Assembly (NCBI GenBank): GCA_048882505.1
Contig: JBHLRO010000014.1
Coordinates: forward strand, 1 to 32,000
DNA length: 32,000 nt
Source of the DNA: Candidatus Thorarchaeota archaeon
GTDB lineage: Archaea; Asgardarchaeota; Heimdallarchaeia; Hodarchaeales; Hodarchaeaceae
Direction: 5' to 3'
A model generated the notes under the pieces. The model was not told the origin of the DNA. It did no database searches and saw only the letters and a program-made list of their open reading frames with translations. Below, one piece after another: positions 5,006-27,800 of the stretch (position 1 is the first letter of the stretch; every line of letters begins with the position of its first letter). The translations under genes and the position numbers were made by a program.

Positions 5006-5012
5006 GAGGTGA
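5006..5012 (+). promoter_or_regulatory. Shine-Dalgarno site GAGGTGA
   Basis: Archaeal consensus SD 5 nt before ATG5018, which argues for ATG5018 over GTG5009 as the start. Confidence 0.7.
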
Positions 5013-5017
5013 GCCTT

Positions 5018-6784
5018 ATGAAAATTAGTTGGAAGAAAAACGCATTACGAATCTGCTTACTTCTCTTCATTACAACCTATTTGGTTCAAGGGAAGGGGTT
5101 TTTGGTTTCTGATTACGATACAAATCCACCCAAAATTGGATCGAGAGCGCTGAATGAGAGGATAATCACCACGAACAAAAATTTTATACCCCATGGCCCA
5201 TTGAATATCAGAGGGGAAACGGCACTTCTAGAAGCTGTGCAAACTGAGGGGTGGAGTGGAAACGGGACAGTAAATAACCCCTTCATCATTTCTGGATACA
5301 ACTTTTCTGGTCCCATTGACTGGCTAAATGACACATCACCGAATAAAGTTCTTCTAAGTGTCGGATTGACAGATTATCACATACATATTACCAATAACAT
5401 CTTTACAGACTATGCCACAGGGATAAGTGCCCATAGGGCGGGTAATGTCACGATCGAAAATAACACGGTGTATTCTACTCATATAGGGATTAGTATAGCT
5501 AGTGGTACTAATATACATTTGAAAAATAATCTGTTCTTTGAAAACAGTCGAAGTATGGATATACACGACTCCAGCAATATATTTGTTGAGGATAATAGGA
5601 TCTATGATTCATATACGGGCGTTGAGATCATTCAATCAGAGGGGATCCTTGTTCATAAAAATGAACTACGAGGCAATTTGGATAGTATTAGATCCGTCAT
5701 TAGCAACAACATCACGATTATATCCAATGATGTCTCCCGATCTCATTCAAAACAAACAGGGTCAGGAATAAAGATAGAGGGCATCCTCCGAACAGGGTCA
5801 GGAATTATCAGCCAGAATTACCAAACTCTGATTTTAAATAATTCAGTAAATGGATTCTGGGACGGGATAGAAGTTTCAGATTGTAATTACGGTGGAAATC
5901 AGATTAATATCTCGAAAAATCTAATCAATGTTAATGCTCGAGGGATTACCGCCTTAAATTCGAGTAGAATATTCATTCAGAACAATACGATATTTAACAA
6001 TGAACGGTGGGGAGTTTATGCAGAAACATCACGCTCCTTGACCATTAAAGGGAATGACTTTATTGGGAATCGTTATTATTTATTTAAACCCAGTTGGCTC
6101 AATACAGATATGATCAATGAGAATCAAGTTAAAGAAATACGTCAAAGTGCAATCAAAGATTGGTCTGCAAGTTCCCAGATTGAATTCAAAAATAACTTTT
6201 GGGATGACCATGTTATTGATCTGAATCTTGATGGATACTCTGACTCTCCATATGTTTTGAACGGTAGTCTTCAAGATGACATGCCGTATTCGAATCCCCA
6301 TCAACACCTCACTTCTGATCCAAACCTTCACATCGTATCGATTCCTAAAATCCTGTTTCCCTTAGCTTATGAATCGTTACAAGGGCCCATAGAAATATTC
6401 TGGATTGAATCAAAGGATTATCCCAACGGACACAATATTGTCTATCATATTTCCTTGGGAGTTGAAGATCAAAATGGATCTTACGATCCCTTTAAGGTTC
6501 AACAGTGGACAGTCTTAGTGTCTGATTTAGATTATCAGAATGCTACTTGGGATACAAATCTAATAATCAACGGGTGGTACCATTTGAAAATCGAGGCTGT
6601 ATGTGAGAATGGACACTCAGTTTTTGATACAAGTGATCATGCATTCTCAATTGGGCTAGATAGACAACGTAATGAACTTCGGGGGGAATCAGCTTCAGGG
6701 TTTAGTTTCTCATTTACGCTGATTCTATTTGTTGGTATTGCTCTCTCTGTTAGGGTGAAAAAAAGAAAGAGAAAGGGAAAATAA
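5018..6784 (+). CDS. Secreted right-handed parallel beta-helix (NosD/CASH-like) surface protein with C-terminal membrane anchor
   Basis: Signal peptide MKISWKKNALRICLLLFITTYLVQG; lead-in PHGPLNIRG..EGWSGNGT.NNPFIISGY; many I.NN.I...GI repeats; NFWDDH..D.N.DG.SD.PY cap; a beta-sandwich domain (W..L.SDL...TWDT..I.NG.YHLKIEA); tail ASGF + hydrophobic helix + RVKKRKRKGK. Confidence 0.88.
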   Translation: MKISWKKNALRICLLLFITTYLVQGKGFLVSDYDTNPPKIGSRALNERIITTNKNFIPHGPLNIRGETALLEAVQTEGWSGNGTVNNPFIISGYNFSGPIDWLNDTSPNKVLLSVGLTDYHIHITNNIFTDYATGISAHRAGNVTIENNTVYSTHIGISIASGTNIHLKNNLFFENSRSMDIHDSSNIFVEDNRIYDSYTGVEIIQSEGILVHKNELRGNLDSIRSVISNNITIISNDVSRSHSKQTGSGIKIEGILRTGSGIISQNYQTLILNNSVNGFWDGIEVSDCNYGGNQINISKNLINVNARGITALNSSRIFIQNNTIFNNERWGVYAETSRSLTIKGNDFIGNRYYLFKPSWLNTDMINENQVKEIRQSAIKDWSASSQIEFKNNFWDDHVIDLNLDGYSDSPYVLNGSLQDDMPYSNPHQHLTSDPNLHIVSIPKILFPLAYESLQGPIEIFWIESKDYPNGHNIVYHISLGVEDQNGSYDPFKVQQWTVLVSDLDYQNATWDTNLIINGWYHLKIEAVCENGHSVFDTSDHAFSIGLDRQRNELRGESASGFSFSFTLILFVGIALSVRVKKRKRKGK

Positions 6785-6850: not shown

Positions 6851-9800
6851 TTAAATGTAAAGATTCTTGTTCTTATCACCATCAACAAATACAGGGATAA
6901 TTGCATCACCGAATCGAGACTGGAGGAAGAGGAAATTTTCTTCTACTGATAACGTCCAATCCCATATCTGTAGCCAGTTCCCATAAAACACTGAATAACG
7001 ATCAAATGTGTTAGAGAATAGTGGTCTGTCGTCTTTTTGAGCTGCAATAAGAGATCTTTTATCTGATTCTAACTCATATAACATACCTTCGCCAAAACAG
7101 GTGTTAAAAACAAATAGCTGATTTGATGTTTCCCAGACATTAACCAATTCACGTAATTCTGTATCAAGTATTAAATGCCCGTTATTCGTTACAATCCCCT
7201 GAGTTTCATTTGCAAATCCATTATTTGAAATATCAATCGCGTGACCTCCGTAATTAACTATAATAGTAGTATTCCATACATCCTTTTCAAGTACATCAAT
7301 GAGATTGACCACATTCTCTAGGGATTGATAATTCAAAAACTCATCTACCAACCAGAATACACGATACCCCTTATCCCTATAGGTTTGGATTTGAGTCAGA
7401 TAGTCGTTATAGAGAGTCCCGAGCTGGGACAGATCATTAAACTGATTAGAGGGCGTTGCGAGAACTAGAGCAATTTTGTGTTCCTCACTAATCTCGAGGT
7501 AGCTGCTTATCACTGTGTCTACATCGAATGACCCCGCAAAGCTGTTAGATTCATTTATTCGACTAGTTCGCATCAGATCATAGAAATATCTGACATTAGA
7601 GAGCAATGCAAACTGTTCATCGGTAGCTAATTTAGTAAAGTTTGTATTATATAATTCTTGGTTCACGGTTTGGCCTGCGTTATACAATGGAATATTTGAT
7701 ACCTGAGTTGAGTTGAAAACTCCACCAATAATGCTGGTTGTGTTCTGACTCATAGAACCATTGATTTGGACATTATAGGTTGAATTAATGGTGAAAGTTC
7801 CTAAAGTTGCATTGGAAGGAACCTCGGCAACGTTTAACACTTGCCATGTATCATTACCCAAGTTGTATATCATTGAATTGGTGTCGAGACTTTGACTTTG
7901 GGTACTGTTCGTAATAAAGTCAATTCCGTCAACGGAAATGTCTTCGAGATTCTCATAGTAGAAAGTATCAGTCCAAGATAGGAAGTCTGAAGCCTGCAAA
8001 CCGCTGTTTTCCCAGGTAGTATATACCCCCTGAGTACTATTTACCGAGGAAGGGGCATTCCATATCTGACCAGAAGGAGTGCCAGTCCACCGGAGATGGT
8101 CAATGTAACCATCGACATAAACTAAAGTCCCAACTTGTGCCTTAACCTCCACGGTTCCACTGTATTTGCCTACACCTTGGACGTATGAACCCATGTCAAT
8201 TGGATCCGACCAACGCCCGTAATTGGTTTCATATTTAAGAACACCGGCCTTAGTTACTTTGATAGCTATATAATGATGACCAGTTGCAAGTGGTGGATCG
8301 AAATAGTAATATGGATTTCCTGTTATTAAAACTTCTATTCCCCACCAGTATCCAGGCGTGGGGGTCTCCAGAGCTATCGCATCTCTCTGTTGTCCTTGTG
8401 CGTACACATAGAGATAATTATTCTTTAATTGTAGATACCAGTTGAGATATTTGTTGAATATTATACGCATATCTGTGTCATAGGAAATTGGTAGGAAATT
8501 TATCGATAAATAGATGTCTTCGCCACCCCAACTGAAATCAGAGACGCTACTACTCTTGACCAAGTAATCGTATAAGTGGAATCCCTTATATGATGGGTTA
8601 CTCCAGCTGGGAGTGTAGTCCCAGTCAGCATGACACCAGCCTGCATCGATAATTGTACCCCAACAGTGTAGACTGTTGGGAGAACTATAGACTGAAGAAC
8701 TCCAGCTACTAATTCCCATACCTATATTTGTACCTTCGGTCCAAGTGGTAAATTCAGATAGACTATTGAGGTGGTTTTCTCTTCCTGAAGATGGAGGAAC
8801 CACATTTACATAAGCAGGAGTTACTGAATTATGATCCGCGTAGTAGGTCGATCCTGTTCTAATCCAACGGAACTCGTAATCGGGAAATGTATCTTGCCAA
8901 GCCCACTGTTCTAATATCACTTCGACAAAATCGAAGAAGAACACGTCATAATGTCCAATCTTTCCAGTTCCGTCACCTGTCACTCCAGTAATGATATTCC
9001 CGTTATAATCACGCATGGAGTTCCAACCTCCTCCTTCTTCGACTACCCAATGTAATTTTGGTTGGTTCTGGTTATCACTCTTTTGCCAAAGCCAGCCATA
9101 GACTTGAAGGGTGTAGACCTCACCATCTCTGACGGGAGTTCCCTCACCCTGCTCTGTTGCGGTACCTGTAAACACTAGACTGTTTGGGACTCCCTGAGGA
9201 TAACCGACTGCACCCCCACCGTAATTGGTTTCAGCAATGGTTACACTCGCCAATTCCTTGAGGATATCAAAGTCAGCATTACCACCCACGGTATCGCGTA
9301 TGGTTCCCCAATTGGAATGATACGCTTGGGCAAAAATGGAGTAGTCTCCAGGGGTACCACCAGAATCTAGTTTTCCTGCAATAGTACTCCACAGAGTTGC
9401 AGGAATATCTACTTCTCCCTTTCCTCTGATTGGATTCCAAATAGGTACAAGTCCTTCCCAACATAATTCATACGGGGCTTGGTTGCAATCGGGTACATTA
9501 TCGGAATCTTCATTGATCCACACAGTTACTGATACCGATGACATCCCTTCAGGAATCCATCCAACGTCAATTACATCGTCATGCCGCGCCATATCGTCTG
9601 ACCAATAGGTACTCGTAGATCCGACTACCTGAATACTCCAATCGATAGTATCTATTCTAGTATATCCTGATTGGGCGGATTGGGCTGACTGATCTGTAAA
9701 TTCTGCCACAAAATAGCTTCCACCAACTAAACCATTAAGAAGCATTGATACGTCATCGCCATCCCATGTGGTCCAGTCCGTACTCCAACTGTCTGTAAAG

Positions 9801-12800
9801 ACGTAATTGGTGGGGTAATTATTACAGGTTGACCAGTCACCCACACAATGACCAATTCGATATTGTGAGGGATTTCCGTCATAGACGTCCCAAACTAGGG
9901 TGTAACCGAGTTGACCGAATGCAATGGTATCATCTGGTGGTGTCTGGATTACATTAGGTGCGTTATCTGTAATGCGCACTCTGATGGACGCATCCCTGGT
10001 AGGATGATCCTCGAGGTGATCGTTCGCTTGACCCGCTGAATCATAGGCGTACCAAATAAGGTTATATTCGGTGTATAGATTAGCTAAAGTTGGATCTGTG
10101 AGGGAAGCAAGGTCAAACGTGATGGGGGTTCCACTTGTCCAGAGGTTACTAGTACCGTCTACTATCCATGTTTGACTCACGTCATCAAAGATCTTATAAT
10201 AATCGGCGTCGGTATCAAAGAATGTCATAGAAAGAATATTTGATGCTCCTGCCTCGGAGTACAACGGTTCGGCTGGGGAATCCCGTCCAGTGAGTAATGG
10301 GATTGGATTAGATACCTGAACAGTGACGGTATCATCGTTGTAATACCCTCCTGTGTTGTATGCGGTGATGGTGTAAGGATACGTTCCTGCATCAAGACCA
10401 TCGACGTTCGCAGTTACGGTCTCGGGGTCTGTCCACGGAATTTGTGTCTCCGCTGGAGTACCCTCACTTTCTACTGTCACTGACCGTACTGCCATTTCAG
10501 CGGGACGATAATCATCGGTTTCGTAATGGAACATGATATAGGCTATAGGACCTCGTTCGAAGCCGTTAGATGGGATTGATTGCCATGTATCTGCACTGGA
10601 AAACGGATAAGATGGATCGTCGGGGAAACGATAACTTCCGAGTCCATTGATGTATTGGAGACTCAAAACGCCGTCGATTATGCTGGCCCCGCTTACTGGG
10701 TTCTCCGATAAAAGTGGAATATCAGTCCCCAGTGCATCATAATATTGTGCAGAGAACTGCATCTCTCGTCCAAATGGGAAGACTCCAGGGTACGAAGCAT
10801 CACTATCTTCGTAAGAGAACCGAATCACAGGTTCCTTATTGGCGTTCAGGAAATAAATCTGAAACAGTCCTGAGTGACTAATGCTAGAACCAGAGTTGAA
10901 GTTATCAGCATCATAGATAAAGTCCACATCAATACGCCAGTCTCTCGTTGTGGGGAGAGTGACTGCATGTGTGATTCCTGCGAAATTGGCACCATTATTC
11001 CACCAATCGGTACTGTACGGAGTCTCGGGGGTCAACAGATTGTCTGTGCCATCAAAATAGTTGATGACATCCTGATTGTACGCAATACTCCAGTCAATTG
11101 CAGGATCCTCCCGAGCTTGATGCCACCCGCCAACGTATGAATCGTATAAGGCCTTGGCCTCTGTAGGGGATAACGCCAGATCATAAATGCGGAATTCATC
11201 AATCGTTCCACGCATGGTATATTGATACCCACTGCGCATCTCATATCCAATCCACCCATCCGTGGCGGCGGCGGTGTCTCCATGAGGATCACCCGCAAAG
11301 ATCGGATTTGCACTGTCAGGTTGTCCGTTGATATAGAACCGCGCGTTCCGACCGCCCTCCCGATTATAGACGACTGTGACATGAGTCCATGTATCGGTGG
11401 GGATGGTTGTAGTGGATAACGCTGGTTGGTCGTCGTTTTGGAGGAGTAATCTGTTACCTGAGAGTCCAAACCACATGGTAGTACTCCATGATTTACCCCA
11501 GATGGTGCACATTCCACAACTGGAGGTGCGTTTCACCCAAGCACTAATTGAAAATACATCGGTATCCACGAAATTCGTGGCTAAGCCATCGACATATACA
11601 CGGTCTCCTGTTGCGTCATAATATAACGCAGAACCTTCATATCCACTTGTCCATGTTGGTGTCCCACCAAAATTACCGTCCAGTCCATGCCCGCTGGTGT
11701 CGTAAACGATTGATCCTGTGTTTTCATCGAGTTTGAAGTGAGCTATGGGATCTTTATCTGATAAGACCGTGGAGGGTTCATAGAGTGTCTTCCAAACAGT
11801 TGGGGTACCTTCGACCTTGACGTGGTGGAAATAATTATTTCTCGGTCTACGTCCGCGACCTGAGGTGGTAAGTCGAATATACGTGGGTGTACCTCGTTGT
11901 AATAAATCTGCCCCACCAGCAGCGGCCGTTAGATCTTGCCATACCCCACATCCCGCAACTATCGTGCCTTGGGTATTACAAACGAAGAACACCGAAATGG
12001 TCTGACCCTCTTTTTTGAGTTGGACATCTCCCTTCATATTATACCCATTGACCGCAGCCGGACTATAGATTTGAGTTTGTGTTCCGCCTGCAGTATAATA
12101 ATATGCATAAGTATAATACCGATGTGCACCCGAACTGGCAGAGCCATCACCATAGAGAAGGTACACCATTTCTTCCATAAATTCATTCAGAATGATAATT
12201 TGATGAGTTCCAGACGGACTATACGTGCCATCCACATAGGGGAAGGTATCGAGTTCAGTAGAAAATGTGAGGTGCCAATCCTCTGCTTCGCTAATCCCCA
12301 ACTCTCGAACCATTCCCGCTGCTTGATATGCAAGGGGGTCATGACCTGGACTACCATATGGTAACCAATAATCGAGGTAGTGTGGTGTTTCGGGGGTGAT
12401 GACATCATTGCCGTTGAAAATCGTTAATATCTCGGATGCGGATAAATCATCATTATAGAGGGTAGGTTCATCAATTCCTCCTCCAAAAATATAATAATCA
12501 TCAAGGCGACGACCAATATTGATTGGGTTTACTGTGTTTCGGACTAGAGTGAAAGTTCCGCCCCCGACTTGAGACGTAGCACCCGTATCTTCTACCCCAT
12601 TAATATATATCTTGATACCTTGATGTGCGTTTGTTCCTTGAGTTCCATCATAGGTAGCTGCAATGAATGACCACTCATTATCATCTATCATCACTGATGA
12701 AATTTTCCCTCGTTGACTCGCTGATCCGTATGAGTCATCGTAGAGATTAAGCTCCACACGGTGTTTGGCTGTATATGGATCGGGTGGACAATTTTCGGAC

Positions 12801-15800
12801 TTGAGTTTGAATTCCCATTCCATGGGACTTGGATAATTCTGCTTAGAGATGACATGGTGATTACATCCCATGTAGGTTGGATACACCCAAGCCATCCAAG
12901 TCATTCCGTTTGTTCCTGGAGTAAAGTCGGAGGAATCTGGAATATATATATAATTTTTATCTGTATACCCACCAAGCCATAGGGAGTTGCCTGCTTCGGG
13001 TCTGTAACTGGTGGTCCTTGAATAATTGGGTCCATATATCGTTCCATGATGTCGGGCATGACTACTATCAGCTGCACTGTTTCCCGATCCCTCGTTCAGT
13101 AAGAGCTGGAGGACTAAATTCTCAGAATCAATCGGGGCATTATACGAAGTCATATCGTGCCAATTTTCATTACCGGCATTTTCGTAGTAAGGATGATCGT
13201 TTTGTTGGGTCCATAGTGATACGTCAGACATATCATCCTCCCAAACGAGAGCCATGGTTTGGGTGATCTCCTCTGGGCGTAAGGCCCAGCCATCGCGTTC
13301 AATGACATAATAATCGGCGGGATCACCTGTACCTTCCGTTATAACCCACGTGATTTGGTTGCCAGTCTCGCCAACATTATACTGTAGGAGGTCATTGGGT
13401 ATGTCGGGGTTTTGAACAACATTTGGCCCCGCTTCAACAATAACATCGACAGGGTCCGAAACAAAATTAACGGGCAGTGCATCGTCCGTTGCATTCATAA
13501 GGAAGGTATAGGATCCACCTACCAATCCATCTATGTCAACTTGGAATTCAACATCATGAGTCCATGTGATGTCGTCATATGTACTCCAGATGACGTAGCT
13601 TGTGTCTGGTGCACCCAGAACCTTCCACAGTACATCGTAAGTTCCAGTTTGGTCATACTGGTCGGAAACGGTCCACGCAATAATATTTCCAGTGGAATCC
13701 TCTACATAAATGGGGATATCAGGAGGACTTGTTGTGGTGGGGATTGGGTTGTACACGGTGACATCATACACATTGCTTAATACGCTATTGGCTGGTGAGG
13801 CGCTGTCAGAGACGTTTACTCGGAATTCATATAATCGACCAGCCGCACTACCCTTAAGATCCGATTGTAATACTACAAAGTTGACCAAGTCACCTGCACC
13901 ATCGGTCACGAACCATGAACCACTACTTCCTGTTCCAGTCCAAGGTGCCCATGTTCCCCCGTCTATTCTGTACTCAGAGAACCACCCACCTGAGTCCCCT
14001 ACTTGGGGTTGAGAAGGCAAACCTTGATAGTCATTCACAGTGAAATCTAAGGTTAGATCACCACCATCATCTTCATAGTAGGTCCCACCGTAGGTAGTTG
14101 GGAAACCAGAGATTGAGGGTGGGTAGTTATAGACAGTTACCGTGGTGTTGTCACTAGTAACCTGATTACCTGGAACCGCACTGTCCGCCACAACCAAACG
14201 GTAAATATAGGATATTCCAGTATTGTTGCCTACTAGGGTCGAGAGAACAATTGTGGCTTGTGGAGACCCAGTTCCATCTAACCAAGTTCCAGATTCTCCC
14301 GGAATGTCTTCCCAAGCATCATTGATGTAGTGTTGGACTTGCCAAGTTCCGCTATCATGGACATCATATGTCGAATTATAATCAGATATGGTCCAGTTCA
14401 GGGTGAGGGGGCTGTAATTCTGATAGTAATCCATGTGTGGGTCTGGAGAAATACCAGAAGGAGGATTATTATAACTCGTGACGTCAACTCCATCAAATAC
14501 CTCCGAACCGAACGCATCAAGAACCTTGAGGCGGAACTGGCATAATCTTCCAATGGGGTTTCCTTCCAAATGTGTGTTCGGGATGGATGCGTAAATGGTG
14601 TCGCTTGTCCCTAGGGTGTCGTTCCATGTTCCTGTGGTATTATAACCTGTTAAATCTTTCCAGTAACCATCTAACCATTGAATGCGCCATGTCCCTAAAT
14701 CATAAGGATCGTTAACCGTCCATGTCAGGTTGATGTAATTATCCTGCCCCTGATAGTACACAGGAATGTTGGGATTATCCGAAAGAACAGGGGGATCGTT
14801 ATAAACGAGAATGCTGATTTCTGCTGACCCTGTGTTATCCCCGCTTTCGTCCGTTACATTTAGACGGAAGTAGTAAGGATCAACACTAGCAGATAGGCCG
14901 TCTATCGTGACTGCGATAGTGAAAGCAGCACCAGTAGAATTCCACGTCCCAGTTCCCGATCCATCTGCGGGATGCCATTCACCCCACGATCCGCTAGGAC
15001 CAACCTTTAAATAGGCTTGATAGCTGCCTGCATCAGCATGTGGGCTATTCTGATCGGTTGCGTCCCATTCGATGATATGTCCTGTGGTGAATTCTAAGTA
15101 TTCATATCCTGGTGGGGCGCTTTTCTCAACTACGGTAGCAAGGGGATTGGTAACATCAATTTGTACACTGGATGAAGTATTGAAATCACCGCTTTGATCT
15201 GTTACATTTGCCATGAAGTAGTAGGGTGTCATTGTGTAATTCAGACCATCTATAACCACGGATATGAGGTCTGATGCTACTCCATCTGTGATCCACGTTC
15301 CTGATCCACTGGGATCATTTAGCCATGGTTTCCATTGAATATCGGTACTATTCTTGTAATAGATCTGGTACGAACCTCCACTCTGTATGCTATTGACGTC
15401 TCTGACCGTCCAGTTAATAGACGTCCCGTTAACGAGATGGATATAGGGAGTTGTGTAGTCTTGGATTTCAATGCTAGGTAGAGGATTGTATACGGTTACA
15501 TTGACCAAGTCAGAAGTAGTATAGGCCTGTTGATCGGTAACATTAATCCGGAATGTATAAGTCCCTGTGGGCGATAAACCATCAACGCTGACTGTGATTG
15601 GTGTGTCATATACCCAAGTTCCACTATCCCACGCAACCCACGATGTAACGGCATCAACATAGTCATACTCTACTACATACGACCCGCTATCGTAGGGGTC
15701 AGTAACATTCCACATAATCGAATGTCCAGTGGTAAATTCAATATAGTCAGGGAATTCGATATCTGGTGGTGGTGACAGGAATTTTGGTCTATCATGTCTA

Positions 15801-18800
15801 AAGATCCAGTCAAAGGTTGTGATATTTGTTTGTAAGAAACGATCTCTAGAAGCATTAATGATAAAGTCGTGCGTACCTGGGCCGTATTGGGTGTAGTACC
15901 AATTAAGGTCTGTAGGTGGATTCCAAGTTAGTAAAGGTCTATCTACATGACCAGTAGAATTAGTTATTGCATTATTGATAACCAATAGATCGTTACCACT
16001 ATTAAAGACTCCATTTTGTATGAAATCTACCCACGCAAAGATATTCACATTCTGTGGGTCAGTCAAACTAGTGACGTATTCACAACCTAGGCATGCAGGG
16101 ACATCTCCACCGTAGGAGGTATTGACTCCTGGAGTCCATATATTGAAGGTTTCAACAGTGATATTGAAGGGAACTTCGATGGTCTTAGGTTCAACATATA
16201 TGCCCCGTGATGCGTTGAAAATGAGGGTGTAATTGCCCATATCTGTGAAGTATTGATAGAGATAGGATGCCCATGAAACGGGAGTAATATCTAAGGTGCC
16301 ATTGGTAACTCCTGTGGTCAACAGGTTGTCGATAATGATCGGTTCCGTACCAGAGTCATAGGCGTCATTGTCGTTGATATCAACCCAAGCAAAAACATTT
16401 ACGTTACTATTATCTCTCATATCTGTAACGCTTACTCCATCAACAATCGTTGTTTCAGGTGCGTCATGAGACCATTCAGTTGTGATGGCACTGGCCGTAA
16501 GATTCATCTTCTCCCGATCACGTAATAAGAAAGAGTCGAGTGCGAATGTACCGCCATCGTAATACTGATCTATGTTAGTTCCATTGAATATCGTTTTAAT
16601 TTTTACCCAACGATCCGAGGGAGATGGAGACCAGAATGAATCATCCCAAAAGAAATTAACTCCACATTGTCCAGTGGAATTGGTGGAGCAAGTTCCTGGT
16701 ATTCTGTACCAGGTAGTACCTCCGTCAATGGAGTAATTAAAGTGAATTTCAATTCCCTGAACGGGTACACTACCAATGGGGGTATCATCTTCGAAAACGT
16801 GGCCAAATAATGGAATGGTTGCACCTTCAAACCACCAATAGTCCTGATCCTTGTATTCATACGCTGTGCCATCTGCATTATATCCTCTAACTACACTGGT
16901 TTCGTTGGCTATTGTAAATGTCCGAACTGTGGTCTGGTTAAAGATTCCGCTACGCTCGTAGGAGATGTAAAGCAGCCACGTGTTGGTGTAGTTGTGGAAC
17001 CATGTCGGGCCAGATATTTCAGCCCATGACTTTCCTGGGATTGAAACATAACCTGCGGCGTCACTGGTATCGTTGACGAATAGTAGTTCACTGCCACTAT
17101 CGTAGACTTGATCCCCATCCAAATCGATCCAAGCATGGACCTTCACACCTGAGTTATCTACCAGGTTTGTAACCTGCAGATTCGAGGAGGGCATCGGATC
17201 ACTCCAAGGAATGGAAATGGAAGACATTGATATAACAGCAGTCTCTGCTACAACCACTCTGAAGTTATCAGTAGTCCTGGTTCTATCCCGGTACCGAGGA
17301 GAACTGGATAATGCGACCTTTATTTCATAATAGCCTAATGGTAGTCCTGAAGGAATATTCCAATCTACAATGGTAGCCTTCCCAGTGCTGTCGGTGATTG
17401 CACTCCCAATCCAATTCCATGTGCTATTATCTTGGTGTTTGTATTCGAACGTCACGCTTTCTCCATCTAAGGGTACAGGATCGGAAACATTCGTCACATC
17501 CCACAAATAAGCTTCGAGTGTGACTGTTTTTCCTTGGGATTGGATAACGTCTCCATAATTCTGAGTAGTATAGCTAAAGATAGCCAACCCCTTCTCGATA
17601 GTAAAGATAGCACTGGCATACGCGGGATTTATAACATCAGACTTTGTACCGTTTACCATGAGAGTATAGTTTACTGCGCTAGTATATCGATCAAATGTAT
17701 CCCAAGACAAAGAAGGCAGATCATATCTACCTACCTGATTGGCCGTGACATTATCTGCCAATACTAGTTCACCAGGATCCTGATCACCCTCATTGTCTTC
17801 GTCAACCCAGATTGTATAGAATAAGTTGTTGTACTGGGGAAGGGTGCCTGCTGACACCATTCCCTCAACAGCTGGGGATGATTGGTTATAACTGAATACC
17901 AGATCTTGTAATGAAAGGCGGAGCTGTAAGCTAGGAGGCCCGACGTCGAATTCTGTCCAAGATGAATTATACGCTGTATCGTAGAATTGACTTGCGTCTG
18001 ACGTGGGGTCCAATCGGAAGTTAATACGGAAATGCCCTTCATCTAGAACCAATGGTTTTCCATCATATAAGATTGCACGCTGATTTGGATAGTTGGCACT
18101 GAGTTGGTTCCACCATTGGAGCCAGATTACGGTGTCGGTGTTAACATTGGGTGTCATTGGGGTATTAAGGAAATAGTAGAGATTGGGTGCTGTGGGGTCG
18201 GAAGCAGTTCGATAAATCCAGTTAACTTCTATGGCAGAGGGATTGTCTGAGAAATATTGCCCGACAATCGGAAGTGAGTGTGAAGTAGGTTCAACTCCGT
18301 AGCTATCGATTCCCAGTTTTATGGTAAGAACTCGTTCATGCGAGTTGGGTATATGAGCTGGATTAACGACAGATGGAGTTATTGTCCAATCTGGGTCATA
18401 ACCGAGACTGGGGTCTAATGTTCCGAAGATTGTGGTTCCGTTATTGTGGTATGTCGTGTTATCAGGAGTTGGCATAGCATACTCGACATGTAAGAAGTCT
18501 GATGCGTCATCAGGTATTTGGAATCCTACCCAGTAGTCTTTATCACCTTGGAGAGTCACATATGGATTAAAGTTTAGTTGGAACCATTCAGGGGTAAAGT
18601 ACCAGGCATTAAGGAAGATGTCGTCTGTGGTCGCAATTAAATCTAGTTGATTGCCGTTTAACTCGTATATGACCCCCCGAATAACGGTACCAAGACCAAT
18701 CGATGAGTGAGTCGCATATAAACTTAAATCTTTCACTATTGAAGTATACGGTAAGTACATTTCAGTAAGGACGAGTGATCGTGCAGAGGGGTAATTAGTG

Positions 18801-21800
18801 CAAGGAGGTTGCATATCATTGGACGGATGAGATCCACAACTACCTCGGGGCTGTTGGACACCCCAATCAGTGGAATGTGGGCCGTAATCAGTCTTATTAT
18901 CGGTTGTATTGTACGGAGAAATTTCAACATACGGATCTGTTGCCATATCGAAATAAGTTCCATCCATAAACTTATCCATCGTCTCTGGGTTCGAATTCCA
19001 ATCCGATGTTGATCCACGGGATAAGATCTGATATGTACTTGATGTATTATTATAATCAGGCAATCCTTCATTCCATGTTCTCTGGACTTCATAATTCGAT
19101 CCAACTACATCTGATACCCAATAAACATTACTGAACTGTGAATTATTTCTCAGAAAGTCTATTGCTTCCTGTTCTGTGTTAGGGAGATCTGACATTCCTA
19201 GATTCGGAGTATATGCTGGATATAGAAAGTCTGGTACACTACCAATGTATTCAGTTGTGATAAAATCAGTGTAGTTCACCAAGGGGTTCGCTAAATCTAT
19301 GGAATACCAAGAACTACTCGTTTGATTCCATTTTTCGATGACCATATCGGCCCGCATAAATGAAAGATCAAACGCATCGATGTTTCCTGCGGCATTAAAT
19401 CGGTGTAGATCAGCTCCCGTCGAATCGGTTATATCAATGACAAACCCTGTTTCCTCTGCGTTTCCAGATTCTAGTCCATCGCCAAAACTACTAGTGGAGG
19501 AATCAATCGTGAAAGTTAATTGTAATGGACTTAGTGAGAGATAAAACTCTGATAGATCAGGTCCGTAAATTGCCTCAGACAGTGTGGAGTGGAAACCACC
19601 TGAACTGTTGGTATGAATAGTTGTATTTTTGTAGAAGATATTTTCAGTGATGTTTAATCGGTAGTAATGAGTACCTTGTGGTAGTACATTTCCGCCAAAA
19701 GCAGGGTTTGATGACACGGTTTCAAATGTGAGGTTCCTCGAAGTGTGTGAAGGAGGCGTATCTATAAGCTGGTTCCATGTATTGTTGTAAAATACCTCAT
19801 AATCTACATCGGTAACATTATGTGTTATAGTCTCGGAATAATTTTCTGGATCTACCATTTGATACTCTATTCGACCTACCTCTCCTACTGTGGCGGTGAA
19901 GTGGAGATTCGCGGTATCATTATAGGTTATCATTATATCCTCTTTATCGATAATTATGGGGAAGAGACCTTGAGTAATCCCATCGTTATCCTCGATTTCT
20001 GCAATTAAATTGTAAGTTTGCCATGGAGTTACACTCGTGTTCATGACTGTGTCGAATTTATTTTGTACAAATACTGGGTCTGGGCAGCTTTGTGGTGATG
20101 TACAACCGTCAACAAGTGTTGTATTTTCTGATACGAGGAGATCTCCGAGATCAAAGACGAAGTTGGCGTTAGCGTCAATGTATATTCGATCTAACTCATT
20201 ACCATCAATTATTGAGTTGTCTCTACTTGTCCATCCACTAGAGTTAGATACTATTAGACCATCAATCCGGCTTCCACCTAGCCCATCATGGTAATCATCG
20301 GTGTAATCAACCAATTTATCTGATTCTGTTTGGATATCCAATGTATCAATCGGACTAGTTAAATGGAAAGGATCAATAACATTGTCCCAGACATCTATAT
20401 AAGGATCTAAAGGATCTAATAAATCCGTATTCAGTGAAGGAAGCATTAACGAAGCTTCCTCGGTATCGGTGAACGCATCACCATCCGAGTTGGAGTCGAT
20501 AGCATTTTCAAATCCATCATTATCTGTATCGAGAGCATAATTTTCCTTTGTTGGAATGTCACGATAAAAGATAGTGTGAGTGCCCTCGGTGAGACTATAC
20601 AAGGGAGATGGGAAACCATCTCGAATAGTATCGCCATCGGGATCAATCTTAGTTGAGTAATGATCAATGTCCGCTAAGAAGGATTCCCAGCCAAATGAAT
20701 CGGATGCGGTGCTATAATAGGATCGATATTTCTTGACGTGGACTTGATAGAACCAATATATGTCATCGAACATGAAGAGATATTCTTCATTGGGGTTACT
20801 TTGGAACCAATTGTACACATCGGTCTCTGAGTAATACCAAGGCGAATTAAATCGGGGGAAGAGTAAATTTGGACTTCGACCAACGTAGGTCCAGAAGGGT
20901 TCCCAACCAATGATTTCAACGACTTCGTAAGAATCTGGTGCTGTTGCCATATTCCATTCATATGCAACATCAACACCAAACTCCCTGATTAAATCGGGTT
21001 TACTCCAAAATGCTGGGGTGTAGGCAGTTACTTCTACTCCTAATGTTCCCATTGGTCGGGTTACTTTATATTGGTAGGTCCAGCCATATTCCGAATTAAC
21101 AGGAACCAGCCATCCGAAGAAAACATGACTCTCATTTTCATTTCCTGCCGTTTCCAACCAAGTAATCGCATCATTGACTCCAGTCATTTTATCTGTGTAT
21201 ATTTGTCCTAAATGAGGATCGTCCTGCATTCCCGCGTAACAGTCAGTGTAGGGGAAGGACATGTCATAACATTTCCAGCTTTTTGTAGCAGTCCATGTAT
21301 ATGTACTGCCCGAGTAATAGTAGGTATTTGCTGGATTTTTCTCTCCAAACATGGTGATTCCATCGGTTAAGAAATCGTTGTCATAATTCGGAGAGAGGGC
21401 ATATGAAATCATACCACTTGGTCTTGTGCCCTTAATAAATTTATAATCCACTGCCTCTTGCTTGTCTTGGAAGGTAGGATCGGGATCATAGGGGAATGGA
21501 TATTCGTCGTGGATGGCCTTATAGTCAAGACGATATCGGGATAGAGCATTCCAGGACCCATTTAATGTTCCGTATTCTGGATCGGGATGTGTAAACTCTC
21601 CATCCCAAGTTACGAATCCACCTTCAGTACCATAACGATACTCTACTGGCCAAAGCTCTACATCTGAATATACCGACTCCCACATTACTTTTGGACTTGT
21701 ATTGAGGATATCAGCTACTGTGGCGTCACTCTGAATTATATCCCAGTTGGTTCCCCAAATGACGGGCACATCATTTAGATCTACACCAAATATCTCTAAT

Positions 21801-24800
21801 TCTTGGGTCGGTTTATGATTCGCCAAGGCGTTACTATCAAAGTTTTCATTCATCCAACTATTGGTTCCCTCAACATAATTCGCATGGTATTCTGGTAACC
21901 AATCATTCCACCAAGGAGCAATGAATTTAATATCCTGATAACTGCGACTTGATAGTTCGTTTCGTCCATAACCAGTACGTTCTCCTAAATCAGTATTTCT
22001 CTCGATCCAGAAGAAATTAGCCATTGTAACCTGCATTGATAAAGATGGGGCGAATCCCATAAGCATTGGATCAACTTGGTAGGTGTTAGCAGGGTCGTTA
22101 AGCCAATCAAGGTAATAATAGTATTGGGCGGTATTAATATAACTACCAGAGGGAACATACACGTCTGCTCCGAAGGCGGTGAGGTTTACAGCTCCAGCCA
22201 GGCGCCCGTTTGGGAATGGTTCGTATAGATAAAGGAGGAAGGCATCATCATCACTATCTGTCTTCCAGGGGTTTGTTTTAACGAAGGAATGATTGAATGC
22301 ATAAGTACTACCATCGATATCAAACAGATAATCATCTACCGTAGCATTGTACTCGTATTGGTTATCTCTTATACGCCCAAAGGGATCAATGTCTCCTTCC
22401 GATAACCTAGTGGTTCTCATGACATGGAAGAAGTCAGAAACTGTTTCATTTCCGAGTATGAATTCTTTCACCCAATAGACGTAATCATCTTGAGGATTGC
22501 CCTCCAGGTAGATTACGGACTCACTAATACTATGGGCGACCCCACCGAAGGGTAGGTAGGTATCTAGTCCGTAGTAGTAAGTGTCGTTATACATCCATTG
22601 ACTATCAAATAGACTATACATGGTTCCTCCAGAGTTGAATACAACCTCTCCAATGTATCCATTATTGTTGAAGTCTACCCATGCACCTGTAGAACCGTTC
22701 CAATTCCATGTCATGTATTTGTTTTGAGGATCTCGCCATACAGGCACCTTTTCCATCACATAGACGTCGAAAGTAGTGACATTATTTCCGGGATCTACCG
22801 CACTAGTCCAATATACAGTATCTTGGGTCTCAAGATCATCCAAATAAGTATATGCATCTCCGCTTGTCTTATTAAATCCTAAGTTTGGAATAGCCCAGTA
22901 GAGATAACTGCTTTTATTCATTGTATCAAAGAAACTGGGTTCGAGGTACCACTCTTGGTATGTGAGAACGGTATGACCAATTTCCTCTCCGTCTAAAAGT
23001 CCGTCGAAGTCACTATCCCGATTCAACGGGTCAGTTCGTGGTTCTTCAATAACTACTTCTTCGGTGTGATAAACCGTAAAGGTAGTAACTGTGTCATTTG
23101 GATCAACCTCGTTTGTCCAATACACAAAAGTTTCATTATTTGTAAGTAGCCAATCTCTTGCATCGTTGAAAGTTTGTTCAAAGAGACCGATGCTATTGGG
23201 TAAACCAAGATAGGTTGTTTTATTTAACTCACCATAATTCGTTGTATTATATTGAGGCATTTGGAAGATATACATCCCATTCGCTTCGGTATAGTCATCT
23301 AAGAAGTCTTGATCAGTATCGAAATGAAGAGGATTTGTTCCTTCCCAGAATTCTCGACCATCGTAAAGACCGTCCTTATCACTATCTCGTAGATGGAGAT
23401 CGGAATATACGGGGAGGAATCGTTCGTCTATTGTTGCAAGGACATCGACACCAACACTCCAATCGCCTCTTGCAGAGACTACAATTTTTTGGACGGCATA
23501 GATCGGCTCTGCCTCAAAGCTGTTGTAATGAATATCCGCTTCAAATGAAAATCTAATGGCCTTAATCGGTGGTGACCACTTATCGTCTAGTCTTCCTGTC
23601 CAAGAGTTGTTCGCCCAAGTATAACTAGAAGAGTTTGTAACCCAGTCAATTGAAGTAGAATCGAAACTGTATGTTCCAAGGAGCGTTGGGCTGTCATCGG
23701 TGTGAATCAGTGCGACCTCGTATCCTGTTCCATTGTTGAAGGTGTCTTGATCTACCCGATACTCCCACGAGATGGTTACAGGATACTGATATGTTGTAAG
23801 AGTATAATCCCACCATGGAGTAATAATGATGCTACTGTTGAATGGAAGTTCGACATATGAATCACTATGTACAGATCCTCGAATAGCTTGGTCATTCCAA
23901 GCATCCAACCAAATTTGTTGTTGGTAGTCCTTTCCTTTGAGACCTGCCCAATACCATGGCCAGGAAACTGTACGTTCACCAACAATTCCTCCAGAGAAGG
24001 ATTCGTTGACATACTCTGCATTCCCACGAACTGTTCCATCTGCCTTCAGTAATCCTATTTCCTTAAAGTCCGATAGAAGATCGTTATCGGTGTCGTACAT
24101 AAGAGGAGACGTGAGGAAAATGTTCAATTCTTCTCCGTCGTTGATGTGATCGCCGTTATATTCACCATCAGGTTGTTCATCAGTGTACGTTTCACCAACA
24201 TCAAAAATACCATTCCCATTGGTATCATCGAACCATTCGGAGTCGGTGTCTGCATCGGTTGGGTCAGTCACTCGAACATTGGCAGGACAACCACCACAAG
24301 TCCAGTAGGTGTCAGTCAAGTTTGTATAAGGATTAACTCCACGAGGATCAATCCCAAAGGACTGATTATCAGAATATGCATAAACCAAGGCGCGCCAATC
24401 ATCGGGGAACGGATTGTCCTCAAGACGGATGTAAGGCGTACTAACTTCGGAGGCATCCGATAATCCATCATCATCGGTGTCGGATTTACTATTATCTGTG
24501 TTCCAGATACGCTCTCTGACGTCAAGTAAAGAATCACCATCTGTATCAGACTTCAATGGAGAAGACCATGAACCTATGCCTGTGTCAGGGCGGATCGTTC
24601 CATTGGAGAAGAATATTTCCTCAAAGTCAGTCAGGAAATCGGAATCGGTATCCATGTCACGAGGATTAGTGACATCACCGACTGCGGGCATATAGATGGT
24701 CTTAATACCTTCGATCGGCCCAGTCTGATTTTGTAATTGCCCAACATCCCAGGTATGCCCTGTAATGCCGTCAAAATCAAGGTAATCGGTTCCTGGGATG

Positions 24801-27800
24801 TTGACCACGCCATAGACTTCATGGGCGTCGGACATGTTATCGTTATCTGAGTCAGCATCCCACCAGAACGGTCGGTTGCACGTAGTACAGGAATAACCAG
24901 GTTCTGCGGGATGACCATAACTGTCTAGGTCTGGTGGGAGATAGTAGGTATAACTGGCATTATAGCCGCCAACGATGGATCCATTGTCGTAGGCGGGCGG
25001 TGTTAAGAGATATCCCAAGGGCCATCCTGAGAGGGTCGAATAGGTGACTTTGCCTGCATTAATAATCCCCAAACTGTCTCCTGTCAAGCTAACGGGACTA
25101 TTCAGGAAGAGATACCCCACCTGTTCTCTCAGATGAACCACAGGGGCCACCTGGTAGGTCATGTTCATGGTAATGGAGTCAATCATGACCAGCTCGGTTG
25201 TCGAGGTGTTGAGCCTGATCCGCATTTCCTCGGTGAACGTACTGGAATCACGGGAGGTTAAGGTAAAGTTATACAATGTTGGGGTAGTATCAATCGATAC
25301 GATACTTCCTGTCCAGTTCTCATACCCACTTTGGCCATGATTCGGTAGGGTTTCGTCCCAGAAATAAACACCGACATCAGCGGTATTCTGATAGGTCCAC
25401 ATGGCCACTTGGGCTGTGAAATTGATCGAAGTAACATTGGATGGTGGAAGGGAGTCATGGAAATTAAAATTCCAGAAAATGCCATCGGTGGGCCCTCGAG
25501 TGTATGCCACCATGTCACTGAAACGGACATACTGGCCGTTATGAAGGATCTTATTTTCTATCTGGAAATTATCCAGGTATGCCTCGGTACCGAGACCCTC
25601 TTCAGGAGTTTCTAAAATAAACAAGTCAGGAAGTACGATCACACCAGAACTACTGACAGAGGCTAAGGTGCCACTGGTATTCACTATATTAACCGTTAAG
25701 GTGTAGTTTCCATCGGGTTGCAGATCAATCAAGTTATAATTGAGGGTAAAGTTGTACCAGGAATTAGTGCCGATAGAGATTCCATCATAGAACAGAGTCT
25801 CATTCTCGTATAGTCCTGGCCCTCGGATGTAAACGGATCCGTTTTTATAGATATTTAATCGTACCGAATCATTTTGCCAGTACCCGCTAGCTAACCGAAG
25901 TTGAATTGATTGGTTGTCCCACCCAGTCAGACTCTGGACTGATAGACCAAAACTATAGGTCATATTATCCAACGGTTGGGGGATGGCGCCAGGGGGTAAG
26001 TGAAGGCTAGCATAAGTCGAGGAGGCGGTACTGGAATTAGCGCTATAGGTATAATACGAAACTTGGGAGGTGAGGTAATCCAGTGTCACAATGTTTGGTG
26101 AATCTACGGTGAAATTCACAGCCAAGTTGTTGATGTCGAGATAATCATCAATGCTTTGGGTGATGGTGAAGTTCTGGTAGACTGAATCCACGCTCACGAC
26201 ATATGGAGTAGACCAGTTACCATTGGAAACGTCATAGGTACTCACATTCACACTGAGGGGATTAGTACTAGTGTACCCAACTGCTTCCATCCCAAAGGCT
26301 AACTGAAGATTCATATTCTCGGCACTTGCGGGAATATTATGATTGAAGGAATCCCAGACTCCACTCGCCAGTCCTTTTGCCATGACAATTCCATATTCCT
26401 TAACCTGAACATCCGTGAATGCATCCAGGAAGATTCGTGATTTTCCTTCATAACTTGTTTGAATGGTAAGATTGGTCGGTATGGAGGTGACATTAAGCTG
26501 GGTTACCACGAAGTCGTCGTAATAGAGCGTGAGGGTATCATTGGCCATTCGTGTGTCGAATGTTAGTCTGAATGAATGCCACACATCTTGGTAAGAGGTC
26601 TGGGGAACACTGACCGACGAATTCAAACTGGAACTGGTGACATTAATGAGAGTTGGCCGAAGAGTCAATGCTAAGACATCCTCGACTGTGTTGTTGAAAC
26701 TGAATTTCACATACCCATCATGGCTCAATTCTTCCAAGTAAAAGAAGATGTCAAAGTACTGAACCTCATTAGGAGCTATGGTAGGTAAGACATATCCCAT
26801 ATTTTCAGTTCGCAATGGGACATACCGAACACTACTATCTATAGAGTCGATATAGACGTAATTTGTATTCCCATTCAATGAAAGACTGATGTTTAGACTA
26901 TTGATATCCTGATAATCGGAGATGGGGATCCCAGTCAAGGTGTAGTTGACTAATGAACCAGTTAAGGGTATGACCCCTACAGGTATCCATGTGGAACTTG
27001 ACACATCCCAGACAGATGCGTTGATCAGGCTACTTCCTGTGCCATTCCACTCGAATGCACCAATGGTGAGATCCAGCTCGATGGCTGTGGCATTACTAGG
27101 AAGATTGTAACCAAAACCACTCCACGAACCATTAATGGTACCAATGCCTTTGGCGACACCTTGGTAGAGACTTCGGGTTTCATTGAATTGGTCAATGAAG
27201 ATTACTGTTCCAGTCTGGTTATTGGTCTCAATATAGACATGTTCAGGGACAATTGGATTGGTAGAAGTTCGATTAATCATTTGATCTATGGTGAGGGCCA
27301 AGGTTGGCGTCATGGTTCGATTATTATACACTAATCTCAGATTGTGCCATGTGTCTAGAGATAAAGTGCCTAACTGTTCTGTGGTAAAACCTGCGCCTGA
27401 TAGTGTCATGTTACCAAAATCAGATATGCACAGAACCATAGAGTTTCCTGCTGTACTATTGAATCGATAGACAACAGCGTCTGATCCATTTAATGAATCT
27501 AAATAGAAGAAAAATTCGAATGTTCGATATTCATCATGGTCGAATGTAGATATTGATTTGTCAAGTGTCACTTGTGTAGTATTTCCTGTTCGTAGAATGA
27601 CCGCATCAATATCCCATGATCCCTGACTAGTATCAGAGCTGGGTATCCCATCTCTGAATCGCACATAGAAATCAGGGCTGTCAAGATAACTACTGACCGA
27701 TACATTCGACCAAGCGTTGGCATTTAAATCGGTCAGCACATTCGTCCAACCGCCGCCATACCAGACGTCTACCAAGATCTGTTCAGTATCCAATGCCCCT

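Follow-up and report, generated by a model that had tools for sequence, protein, structure and literature searches.

A divergent metacaspase-like domain at the C-terminus of a giant Hodarchaeales protein

The locus described here raises a simple question: what forms the tip of a protein that is among the largest in archaea, and does it work as a peptidase? The window, that is, the whole 32,000-nucleotide stretch of DNA that was analyzed, comes from Candidatus Thorarchaeota archaeon of the order Hodarchaeales (GenBank assembly GCA_048882505.1, contig JBHLRO010000014.1, positions 1 to 32,000) and contains the 3' portion of a giant minus-strand gene. From the sequence alone, it had been proposed that the product ends in a caspase/legumain-like cysteine peptidase instead of a membrane anchor (hereafter, the original prediction). 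The Hodarchaeales count among the known archaea most closely related to eukaryotes, and to our knowledge, almost nothing is known about their cell-surface biology and giant proteins. The best explanation of our results is that the protein ends in a divergent metacaspase-like domain, which is probably an extracellular His-Cys cysteine endopeptidase performing limited proteolysis at the cell surface. The comparisons below establish how this domain folds, that it is homologous to Peptidase_C14 proteins of archaea and that His8240 and Cys8288 occupy the catalytic columns; its catalytic competence is, in our judgment, probable.

The C-terminal domain and its fold

The giant gene and the two parts of its C-terminal domain are located in the window as follows.

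6851..31999, minus strand: C-terminal 8,382 codons of the giant gene (open reading frame list and genome frame)
6854..7492, minus strand: caspase-fold (clan CD, metacaspase-like) alpha/beta core, P0001 residues 8157-8369 (AlphaFold2, VIA-align, Foldseek, hhalign)
7493..7708, minus strand: three-helix N-terminal extension, P0001 residues ~8085-8156 (genome profile match, model)

The minus-strand open reading frame (ORF) at 6851..31999 runs open at the 5' edge of the window. On the contig, designated C14, of which the window is C14:1-32000, the whole gene spans C14:6851-51025 as an open frame of 14,729 codons, which gives 14,724 amino acids counted from the first Met; about 6,350 amino acids of the giant protein fall outside the window. 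Residues are numbered here according to P0001, which is 8,369 amino acids long and starts at the ATG at 31960. The C-terminal stretch contains TTIIVNYGGHAIDIS and, 48 amino acids further on, QLFVFNTCFGEGMLY, followed by VDGDKNKNLYI and the stop codon; in fuller form, the protein ends as NTTIIVNYGGHAIDIS ... TSNQLFVFNTCFGEGMLY ... FVDGDKNKNLYI-stop. The motifs VNYGGH and VFNTCFGEG do lie 48 residues apart, as originally predicted, and a conserved unit is indeed present at the C-terminus, but it measures about 285 amino acids (window 6854-7708; profile match C14:6854-7708) and not about 210, because the three-helix extension is included, and the protein is about 6,350 amino acids longer than the part encoded in the window.

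AlphaFold run on the single sequence of the domain gave an unusable model, with a predicted local distance difference test (pLDDT) value of 39, and this was replaced by an alignment-based model. The resulting AlphaFold2 model (mc43151b04804), which draws on a 28-sequence alignment, has a pLDDT of 90.4 and a predicted template modelling score of 0.90, with all residues at pLDDT 50 or above. In keeping with the sequence, in which beta-rich repeats give way to an alpha/beta pattern, the core (model residues 58-270, window 6854-7492) contains six strands alternating with helices: beta1 KIALVLA, beta2 RVFWLV, beta3 TTIIVNY, beta4 QLFVFNT, beta5 SLIAA and beta6 PVFVD. The helices of the extension (model residues 14-32, 36-44 and 48-56) are modelled at pLDDT 80-93; the extension precedes the core in every full-length member of the family and is conserved in the same-genome paralogue P0002, in the orthologue of the same-genus genome G060, and in P0004 and P0007. 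The model suggests that the unit consists of this extension and a contiguous p20+p10-like alpha/beta core.

When the model was compared with PDB and Swiss-Prot using Foldseek, the matches listed were all caspase-family proteins, with probability 1.0, including GSU0716, metacaspase-9, MALT1, caspases and a paracaspase. Superposition with VIA-align gave Z scores of 19.4-20.6 and a root-mean-square deviation (rmsd) of 2.2-2.9 Å over 187-204 aligned residues for metacaspase-4 and metacaspase-9, MALT1, GSU0716, legumain, caspase-6, peptide asparaginyl ligases and PIGK. Gingipain (C25), clostripain (C11) and the MARTX CPD (C80) were not among the 50 matches listed per PDB fold search, an absence that leaves room for more distant kinship. 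With a confident model, Z scores of about 20 and the hhalign E-value of 4.8e-15 described below, a signal well beyond chance, the caspase/legumain-like clan CD fold that had been proposed is upheld, and we consider it close to certain that the domain has the clan CD caspase/hemoglobinase fold in a metacaspase-like form.

Sequence kinship places the domain nearer to one branch of this clan. By hhalign, the close family matches canonical archaeal Peptidase_C14 relatives with 98.4% probability (E 4.8e-15), and a joint profile matches plant, yeast and trypanosome metacaspases with E-values of 2e-22 to 6e-13, with PIGK and MALT1 near 1e-7. The close-family profile alone matches clan CD chains only (GSU0716, metacaspase-4 and PIGK), weakly but with the catalytic His and Cys aligned. 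Features from a protein language model point to Peptidase_C14 for 78 of the 100 nearest clusters, and in the 28-sequence alignment, 21 sequences match Peptidase_C14 and nine also match Peptidase_C13. Against the gathering score of 21.4 bits of Pfam PF00656 (Peptidase_C14), the giant's domain gives no match, P0004 reaches 17.8 bits and the distant P0008 31.4 bits; PF01650 (Peptidase_C13) likewise does not match the giant's domain. The link of the domain to C14 is transitive or made through profile-profile comparison only, and the sequence profiles, by much better E-values, favour metacaspase-like C14 over C13.

These comparisons also bear on whether the domain might act as a sortase-like transpeptidase, in the manner of Gpi8, PorU or peptide asparaginyl ligases, cleaving near a C-terminus and transferring the acyl group to an amine or glycan, so that the giant or another protein would become covalently attached to the envelope or to the beta-helix protein encoded next door. 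Legumain, peptide asparaginyl ligases and PIGK (Z 19.5-20.1, rmsd 2.2-2.5 Å) score as high as metacaspases, so that structure fixes the clan but does not separate C14 from C13; the global fold is indistinguishable from that of C13 proteins, there is local resemblance around the Cys strand (FIIDTC versus FIINTC), the close-family profile weakly matches PIGK around the Cys strand (E 0.38), and the giant lacks a C-terminal anchor that its neighbour possesses. On the other side, the wider-family profiles lean to metacaspase-like C14, the giant's domain has neither a Peptidase_C13 match nor a C13-type prodomain or cap, and because the domain itself is the extreme C-terminus, there is no C-terminal signal peptide beyond it to be removed in cis. 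The Gpi8/legumain-type transamidation suggested originally therefore finds no specific support, since the sequence is nearer to C14 than to legumain and Gpi8, and we regard such an activity as very improbable.

The metacaspase-like domain appears to be displayed outside the cell. The giant protein begins with MTLEKSKLYYISLALFFVVGAFATAY, in which a hydrophobic helix at residues 8-26 forms a Sec-type signal or anchor, and a Kyte-Doolittle scan found no hydrophobic segment at its C-terminus; many other large proteins of this genome, as well as the neighbour gene product, end in a C-terminal transmembrane (TM) helix and a basic tail. The idea of a peptidase in place of an anchor is consequently apt for the C-terminus and incomplete for the protein as a whole, which has the N-terminal signal or anchor. 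N-x-S/T sequons occur about two-fold over expectation in most of full-protein residues 5,001-12,500 and again in 14,001-14,500, and the sequons NTT and NET within the caspase-like domain recur in most family members. The sequon enrichment and the N-terminal hydrophobic helix together fit an extracellular, glycosylated giant protein. Because of the N-terminal signal or anchor and the lack of a C-terminal one, the peptidase would occupy the unattached outer tip of a fibre that extends over thousands of residues.

A rare family and its candidate catalytic dyad

An exhaustive HMMER search of 1.84 billion representative proteins yielded seven relatives of the domain (P0002-P0008): P0002, a 1,440-residue protein of the same genome whose domain is 38% identical to that of the giant; P0003-P0007, five short metagenome proteins or fragments; and P0008, a distant 317-residue protein that matches Pfam Peptidase_C14 with an E-value of 2e-7, above the gathering score. 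Across 400 genomes of the phylum, the family profile gave full-length matches in two genomes only, the window's own (the giant and the copy on contig C56) and G060, and weaker core-only matches in 124, which correspond to ordinary caspase-domain proteins of 280-400 amino acids. An alignment-based protein homologue search returned distant Peptidase_C14 proteins only, a domain scan of genome contigs found none beyond G060, and a scan of metagenome contigs with the pattern [NK]Q[LFY]F[IVM][IFL]N[TS]C produced no match. In every member, the caspase-like domain is the extreme C-terminus. One metagenome member, P0004 (L024:662-1576), is a stand-alone domain of about 300 amino acids without a signal peptide, which carries Ser at the position of the catalytic His and lies after a coiled-coil-like ORF and before a beta-helix gene.

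The two candidate catalytic residues are encoded at the following positions.

7241..7243, minus strand: candidate catalytic His, P0001 residue 8240, model residue 141, motif YGGHA (alignment with GSU0716 and metacaspase-4)
7097..7099, minus strand: candidate catalytic Cys, P0001 residue 8288, model residue 189, motif FNTCFGEG (alignment with metacaspase DSCHSG)

In the model, His141 directly follows beta3 (strand 133-139) and Cys189 directly follows beta4 (strand 181-187), with a spacing of 48 residues, and superposition together with the position of both residues at the ends of these neighbouring strands suggests that they are close in space. In the alignments, His8240 falls on the catalytic His of GSU0716 and metacaspase-4 (SGHG), and Cys8288 is the sole Cys in the last 300 amino acids; the lone Cys and the missing hydrophobic tail had both been read correctly from the sequence. 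Conservation was counted over the seven sequences that span the C-terminal half of the domain. The Cys is present in all seven close members and nearly invariant across the 28-sequence alignment, and the His is present in five (the giant, P0002, the G060 orthologue, P0003 and P0005), P0006 being a doubtful fragment at this position, so that the dyad is conserved only in part. There are 14 invariant residues, namely the Cys, the Asn two before it (window 7103-7105), the Gln and Phe of the same strand, the Asp of an L-x-D motif and nine others, and they cluster on the Cys-ending strand (Q-x-F-x-x-N-x-C).

The surroundings of the Cys also hint at specificity. The Asn two residues before it, already noted in the original prediction, proved to be a fixed feature of the family, and the Asp of YNDYL aligns with the N-D motif of metacaspases, being Asp in five of six members and Glu in P0002. 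In metacaspases such as TbMCA2, the N-D motif Asp and the Asp two before the Cys form the acidic S1 pocket; the alignment suggests the same role for the YNDYL Asp. Since this Asp is kept and the acidic residue before the Cys has become Asn, an enzyme of this family would be expected to have a P1 preference related to, and not identical with, the Arg/Lys preference of metacaspases.

Set beside the metacaspase-like, orthocaspase-type Peptidase_C14 proteins (PF00656), which include GSU0716 (PDB 3bij), Arabidopsis metacaspase-4 and metacaspase-9 and archaeal proteins of about 280-400 amino acids, the giant's domain has the same fold (Z about 20), with the His after beta3, the Cys after beta4, the ND-motif Asp, an L/I-x-D motif and the beta6 tail in common. 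It differs from them in having His-Ala instead of His-Gly and N-T-C-F-G-E-G instead of D/x-S-C-H-S-G-G, in its added three-helix extension and in the lack of a Pfam match. Moreover, it is fused to the end of a protein of 14.7 thousand residues, whereas they stand alone, and its subfamily is confined to one genus and a few metagenome fragments.

Several of these features weigh against a working peptidase. Queried by itself, the sequence of the domain finds no match in Pfam or PDB even at E<=10; P0004 has Ser and P0007 Arg at the position of the His; and the residue after the His is Ala, Thr or Ile in the family (GGH-A in the giant) in place of the canonical Gly, whereas G-H-G is invariant in the canonical archaeal relatives. 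In clan CD, the backbone of the Gly after the His normally helps to form the oxyanion hole.

The same observations invite the reading that the domain is a pseudo-protease, in which the caspase fold, without catalysis, would cap the tip of the fibre, mediate dimerisation or bind a ligand or peptide, in analogy to inactive caspase-like repeats and scaffolding paracaspases, and the invariant Cys would take part in an intermolecular disulfide or have some other non-proteolytic role. This reading would account for loss of the His in two of seven members while the rest of the domain is conserved, for the change of the acidic S1 residue to Asn and for a divergence large enough that the Pfam C14 and C13 models miss the domain. 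It has a precedent in giant toxins, some caspase-like repeats of which are devoid of catalytic residues and perhaps structural (Zhang et al., PMC3482391). Nevertheless, the giant, its paralogue and the orthologue from another species retain both His and Cys at only 33-38% identity, the invariant residues gather on the strand that delivers the Cys, and a conserved lone free Cys is unusual in an extracellular domain unless it is functional. We consider a pseudo-protease rather unlikely, while catalysis by an extracellular cysteine endopeptidase that uses the His8240-Cys8288 dyad seems the more natural use of these residues. The dyad is thus retained, with an atypical pocket, in the large proteins and is possibly decaying in some of the small or fragmentary members.

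The adjoining beta-helix gene and the C56 copy

If the domain cleaves proteins, a candidate partner is encoded directly beside it, and related genes adjoin the caspase-like gene elsewhere.

5009..6784, plus strand: convergent neighbour gene, 591 amino acids, NosD-like (Pfam Beta_helix 3e-24, NosD 3e-18)
L027:5395-6675, minus strand: beta-helix counterpart adjacent to the caspase-like gene
L023:4252-5988: beta-helix counterpart adjacent to the caspase-like gene
L025:829-1572: beta-helix counterpart adjacent to the caspase-like gene
L024:1667-2047: beta-helix counterpart adjacent to the caspase-like gene

The neighbour gene product consists of a signal peptide, a NosD/right-handed beta-helix, an immunoglobulin-like module, a C-terminal TM helix and a KKRKRKGK tail; its counterparts have a signal peptide and, where the contig reaches the end of the gene, the C-terminal TM helix and basic tail. 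In each of the five family loci with available DNA, a NosD-like beta-helix gene adjoins the caspase-like gene at its 3' end; the two genes are convergent in the window and on C56 and lie on the same strand in G060 and two metagenome contigs. Among the roughly ten beta-helix paralogues detectable in the genome, the closest to the neighbour by far is the one adjoining the C56 copy (36% identity, E 1.5e-63), so that in the window and C56 pairs, each gene has its closest genome paralogue in the other pair (38% for the domain, 36% for the beta-helix). Since the adjacency survives a change of orientation and the closest paralogues pair up, the gene order and these kinships argue for a functional link between the two genes. 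A point on the other side comes from G069, a same-genus genome that is 74% complete, in which a 44%-identical beta-helix orthologue lies among unrelated neighbours without a caspase-like gene; the linkage is therefore not obligatory. Complex prediction for the domain and the beta-helix ectodomain, run without controls, scored 0.00 and speaks neither for nor against binding.

The proposed endopeptidase would most likely carry out limited proteolysis at the cell surface, in which it would process the giant protein itself or release its tip, or else cleave a nearby surface protein. The adjoining membrane-anchored NosD-like beta-helix protein would be the best candidate as partner, substrate or dock.

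The second pair of genes in this genome allows a further comparison. P0002 (L027, G000:C56:1073-5395) has its GTG start codon at C56:1073, right behind an unrelated ORF in reverse orientation, lacks a signal peptide and begins mid-LamG relative to the giant, of whose last ~1,450 amino acids it is an N-terminally truncated paralogue (compare window 9665-11196). Its first ~540 residues match those of the giant with 64-95% amino acid identity, and the remaining ~940, including the caspase-like domain, with 20-50%; the DNA is 79% similar over 1.5 kb, after which no homology can be detected. The C56 contig is a 6.7-kb contig of a metagenome-assembled genome (MAG), and the copy may just as well stem from an ancient partial duplication or from an error of assembly or binning on so short a contig.

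Such a pattern is what might be seen if the variable C-terminal ~940 amino acids were a polymorphic effector cassette, delivered by contact like Tox-Caspase or CdiA-CT, with the co-diverging beta-helix membrane protein as its cognate immunity protein or receptor and the C56 copy as a spare orphan cassette for recombination. The domain occupies the C-terminal-most position that Zhang et al. (PMC3482391) assign to caspase-like toxin domains, and the C56 copy resembles the orphan cassettes of bacterial polymorphic toxin loci in its abrupt mid-LamG start, its conserved ~540 and divergent ~940 amino acids and its only 36% identical neighbour; the sudden end of DNA homology and the neighbour gene kept in five of five loci also suit such an arrangement. 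However, the neighbour is a surface-anchored beta-helix protein of some 590 amino acids and not a small immunity protein, its gene is convergent in two of the five loci, 79% nucleotide identity does not point to recent exchange, the C56 copy lies on a MAG contig of only 6.7 kb, and no secretion or delivery apparatus was identified. In addition, a search of 21 same-genus genomes with the pre-terminal region (P0001 7640-8100) found no homologue, and hence no instance of the same stalk with a different end domain. We judge the cassette improbable and retain the surface endopeptidase as our explanation. Were a cassette nonetheless present, it would amount to a contact-dependent effector/receptor or effector/immunity pair on a fibre of 14.7 thousand residues, in the archaeal lineage closest to eukaryotes.

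Known systems and other features of the giant protein

Caspase-like (clan CD) domains are known from large bacterial surface proteins and polymorphic toxins, in which internal copies are releasing peptidases, the C-terminal-most copies are likely toxins and some lack catalytic residues; the CPD of MARTX and TcdB (family C80) is the classic example of processing (Zhang et al. 2012, PMC3482391). Because such bacterial giants have already been described, the architecture is less unprecedented than was originally supposed. The Hodarchaeal giant and the Tox-Caspase and MARTX/TcdB CPD proteins have in common a clan CD domain in or at the end of a giant secreted protein, its C-terminal-most position and an end that diverges from the stalk. 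The Hodarchaeal protein differs in its Asgard host and in that its domain is by sequence metacaspase-like and not C80, with no activation of the inositol hexakisphosphate (InsP6) type implied, and its locus contains no small downstream immunity gene and instead a conserved neighbour gene for a large beta-helix membrane protein.

The domain represents a rare and lineage-specific form of a known type, the caspase-like end domains carried by giant surface and toxin proteins of bacteria, and its novelty lies in the Asgard Hodarchaeales host, its extreme divergence and rarity, the helical extension, the H-A and N-T-C motifs and the beta-helix partner. A search of the literature on Asgard orthocaspases and metacaspases returned nothing relevant, and we found no paper describing such an end domain of a giant protein. 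We have here a previously unrecognised and extremely rare caspase/metacaspase subfamily that standard domain libraries miss, an orphan at the end of a protein that ranks among the largest of archaea, and not a new principle. With its single Cys, single His and conserved partner gene, it offers a testable handle on an otherwise domain-less protein of 14.7 thousand residues. Should it prove active, archaea would join bacteria in having giant secreted proteins that carry their own clan CD peptidase; if inactive, it would be a clean case of a caspase fold recruited as a structural tip.

Elsewhere in the giant protein, Pfam detects two Laminin_G_3 stretches and weak PKD-like repeat matches, and the rest of the 14.7 thousand residues gave no match in the Pfam search. 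Two regions are poor in sequons: full-protein residues 1501-5000, which lie beyond the window (2 observed, ~23 expected), and 12501-14000 (window ~9026-13525; 2 observed, ~14 expected), the second of which spans the LamG insert and the stretch common to the C56 copy. In the interior of the giant, the hydrophobic sequence VIFPYTLAYIPVILASI (window 30584-30640, minus strand; P0001 residues 441-459), after which KKK follows, resembles a stranded C-terminal TM anchor and may be the trace of a fusion of two genes. The strong enrichment of sequons on either side of it led us to reject as unlikely a real TM helix at this site, which would place the C-terminal half in the cytoplasm.

Paralogues of the N-terminal ~1,600 amino acids of the giant, 38-44% identical, occur at G000:C38:15988-21225, C44:213-5396 and C66:2510-3495; those on C38 and C44 are separate ORFs of about 1,730-1,750 codons, so that this region is a module that also exists alone. 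The genome has a second giant ORF of 10,069 codons (G000:C10:95218-125424, plus strand), which has an N-terminal hydrophobic helix and a different C-terminus without the caspase-like domain. Finally, six other large proteins (1,562-4,342 amino acids) have in common the C-terminal motif ILSYEKIYGTTEL, followed by acidic residues. They are encoded on the following contigs of G000.

C35:9568-22593: large protein with the ILSYEKIYGTTEL-type end
C8:38570-50884: large protein with the ILSYEKIYGTTEL-type end
C1:14082-25133: large protein with the ILSYEKIYGTTEL-type end
C17:58675-68817: large protein with the ILSYEKIYGTTEL-type end
C4:109892-118846: large protein with the ILSYEKIYGTTEL-type end
C4:53162-57847: large protein with the ILSYEKIYGTTEL-type end

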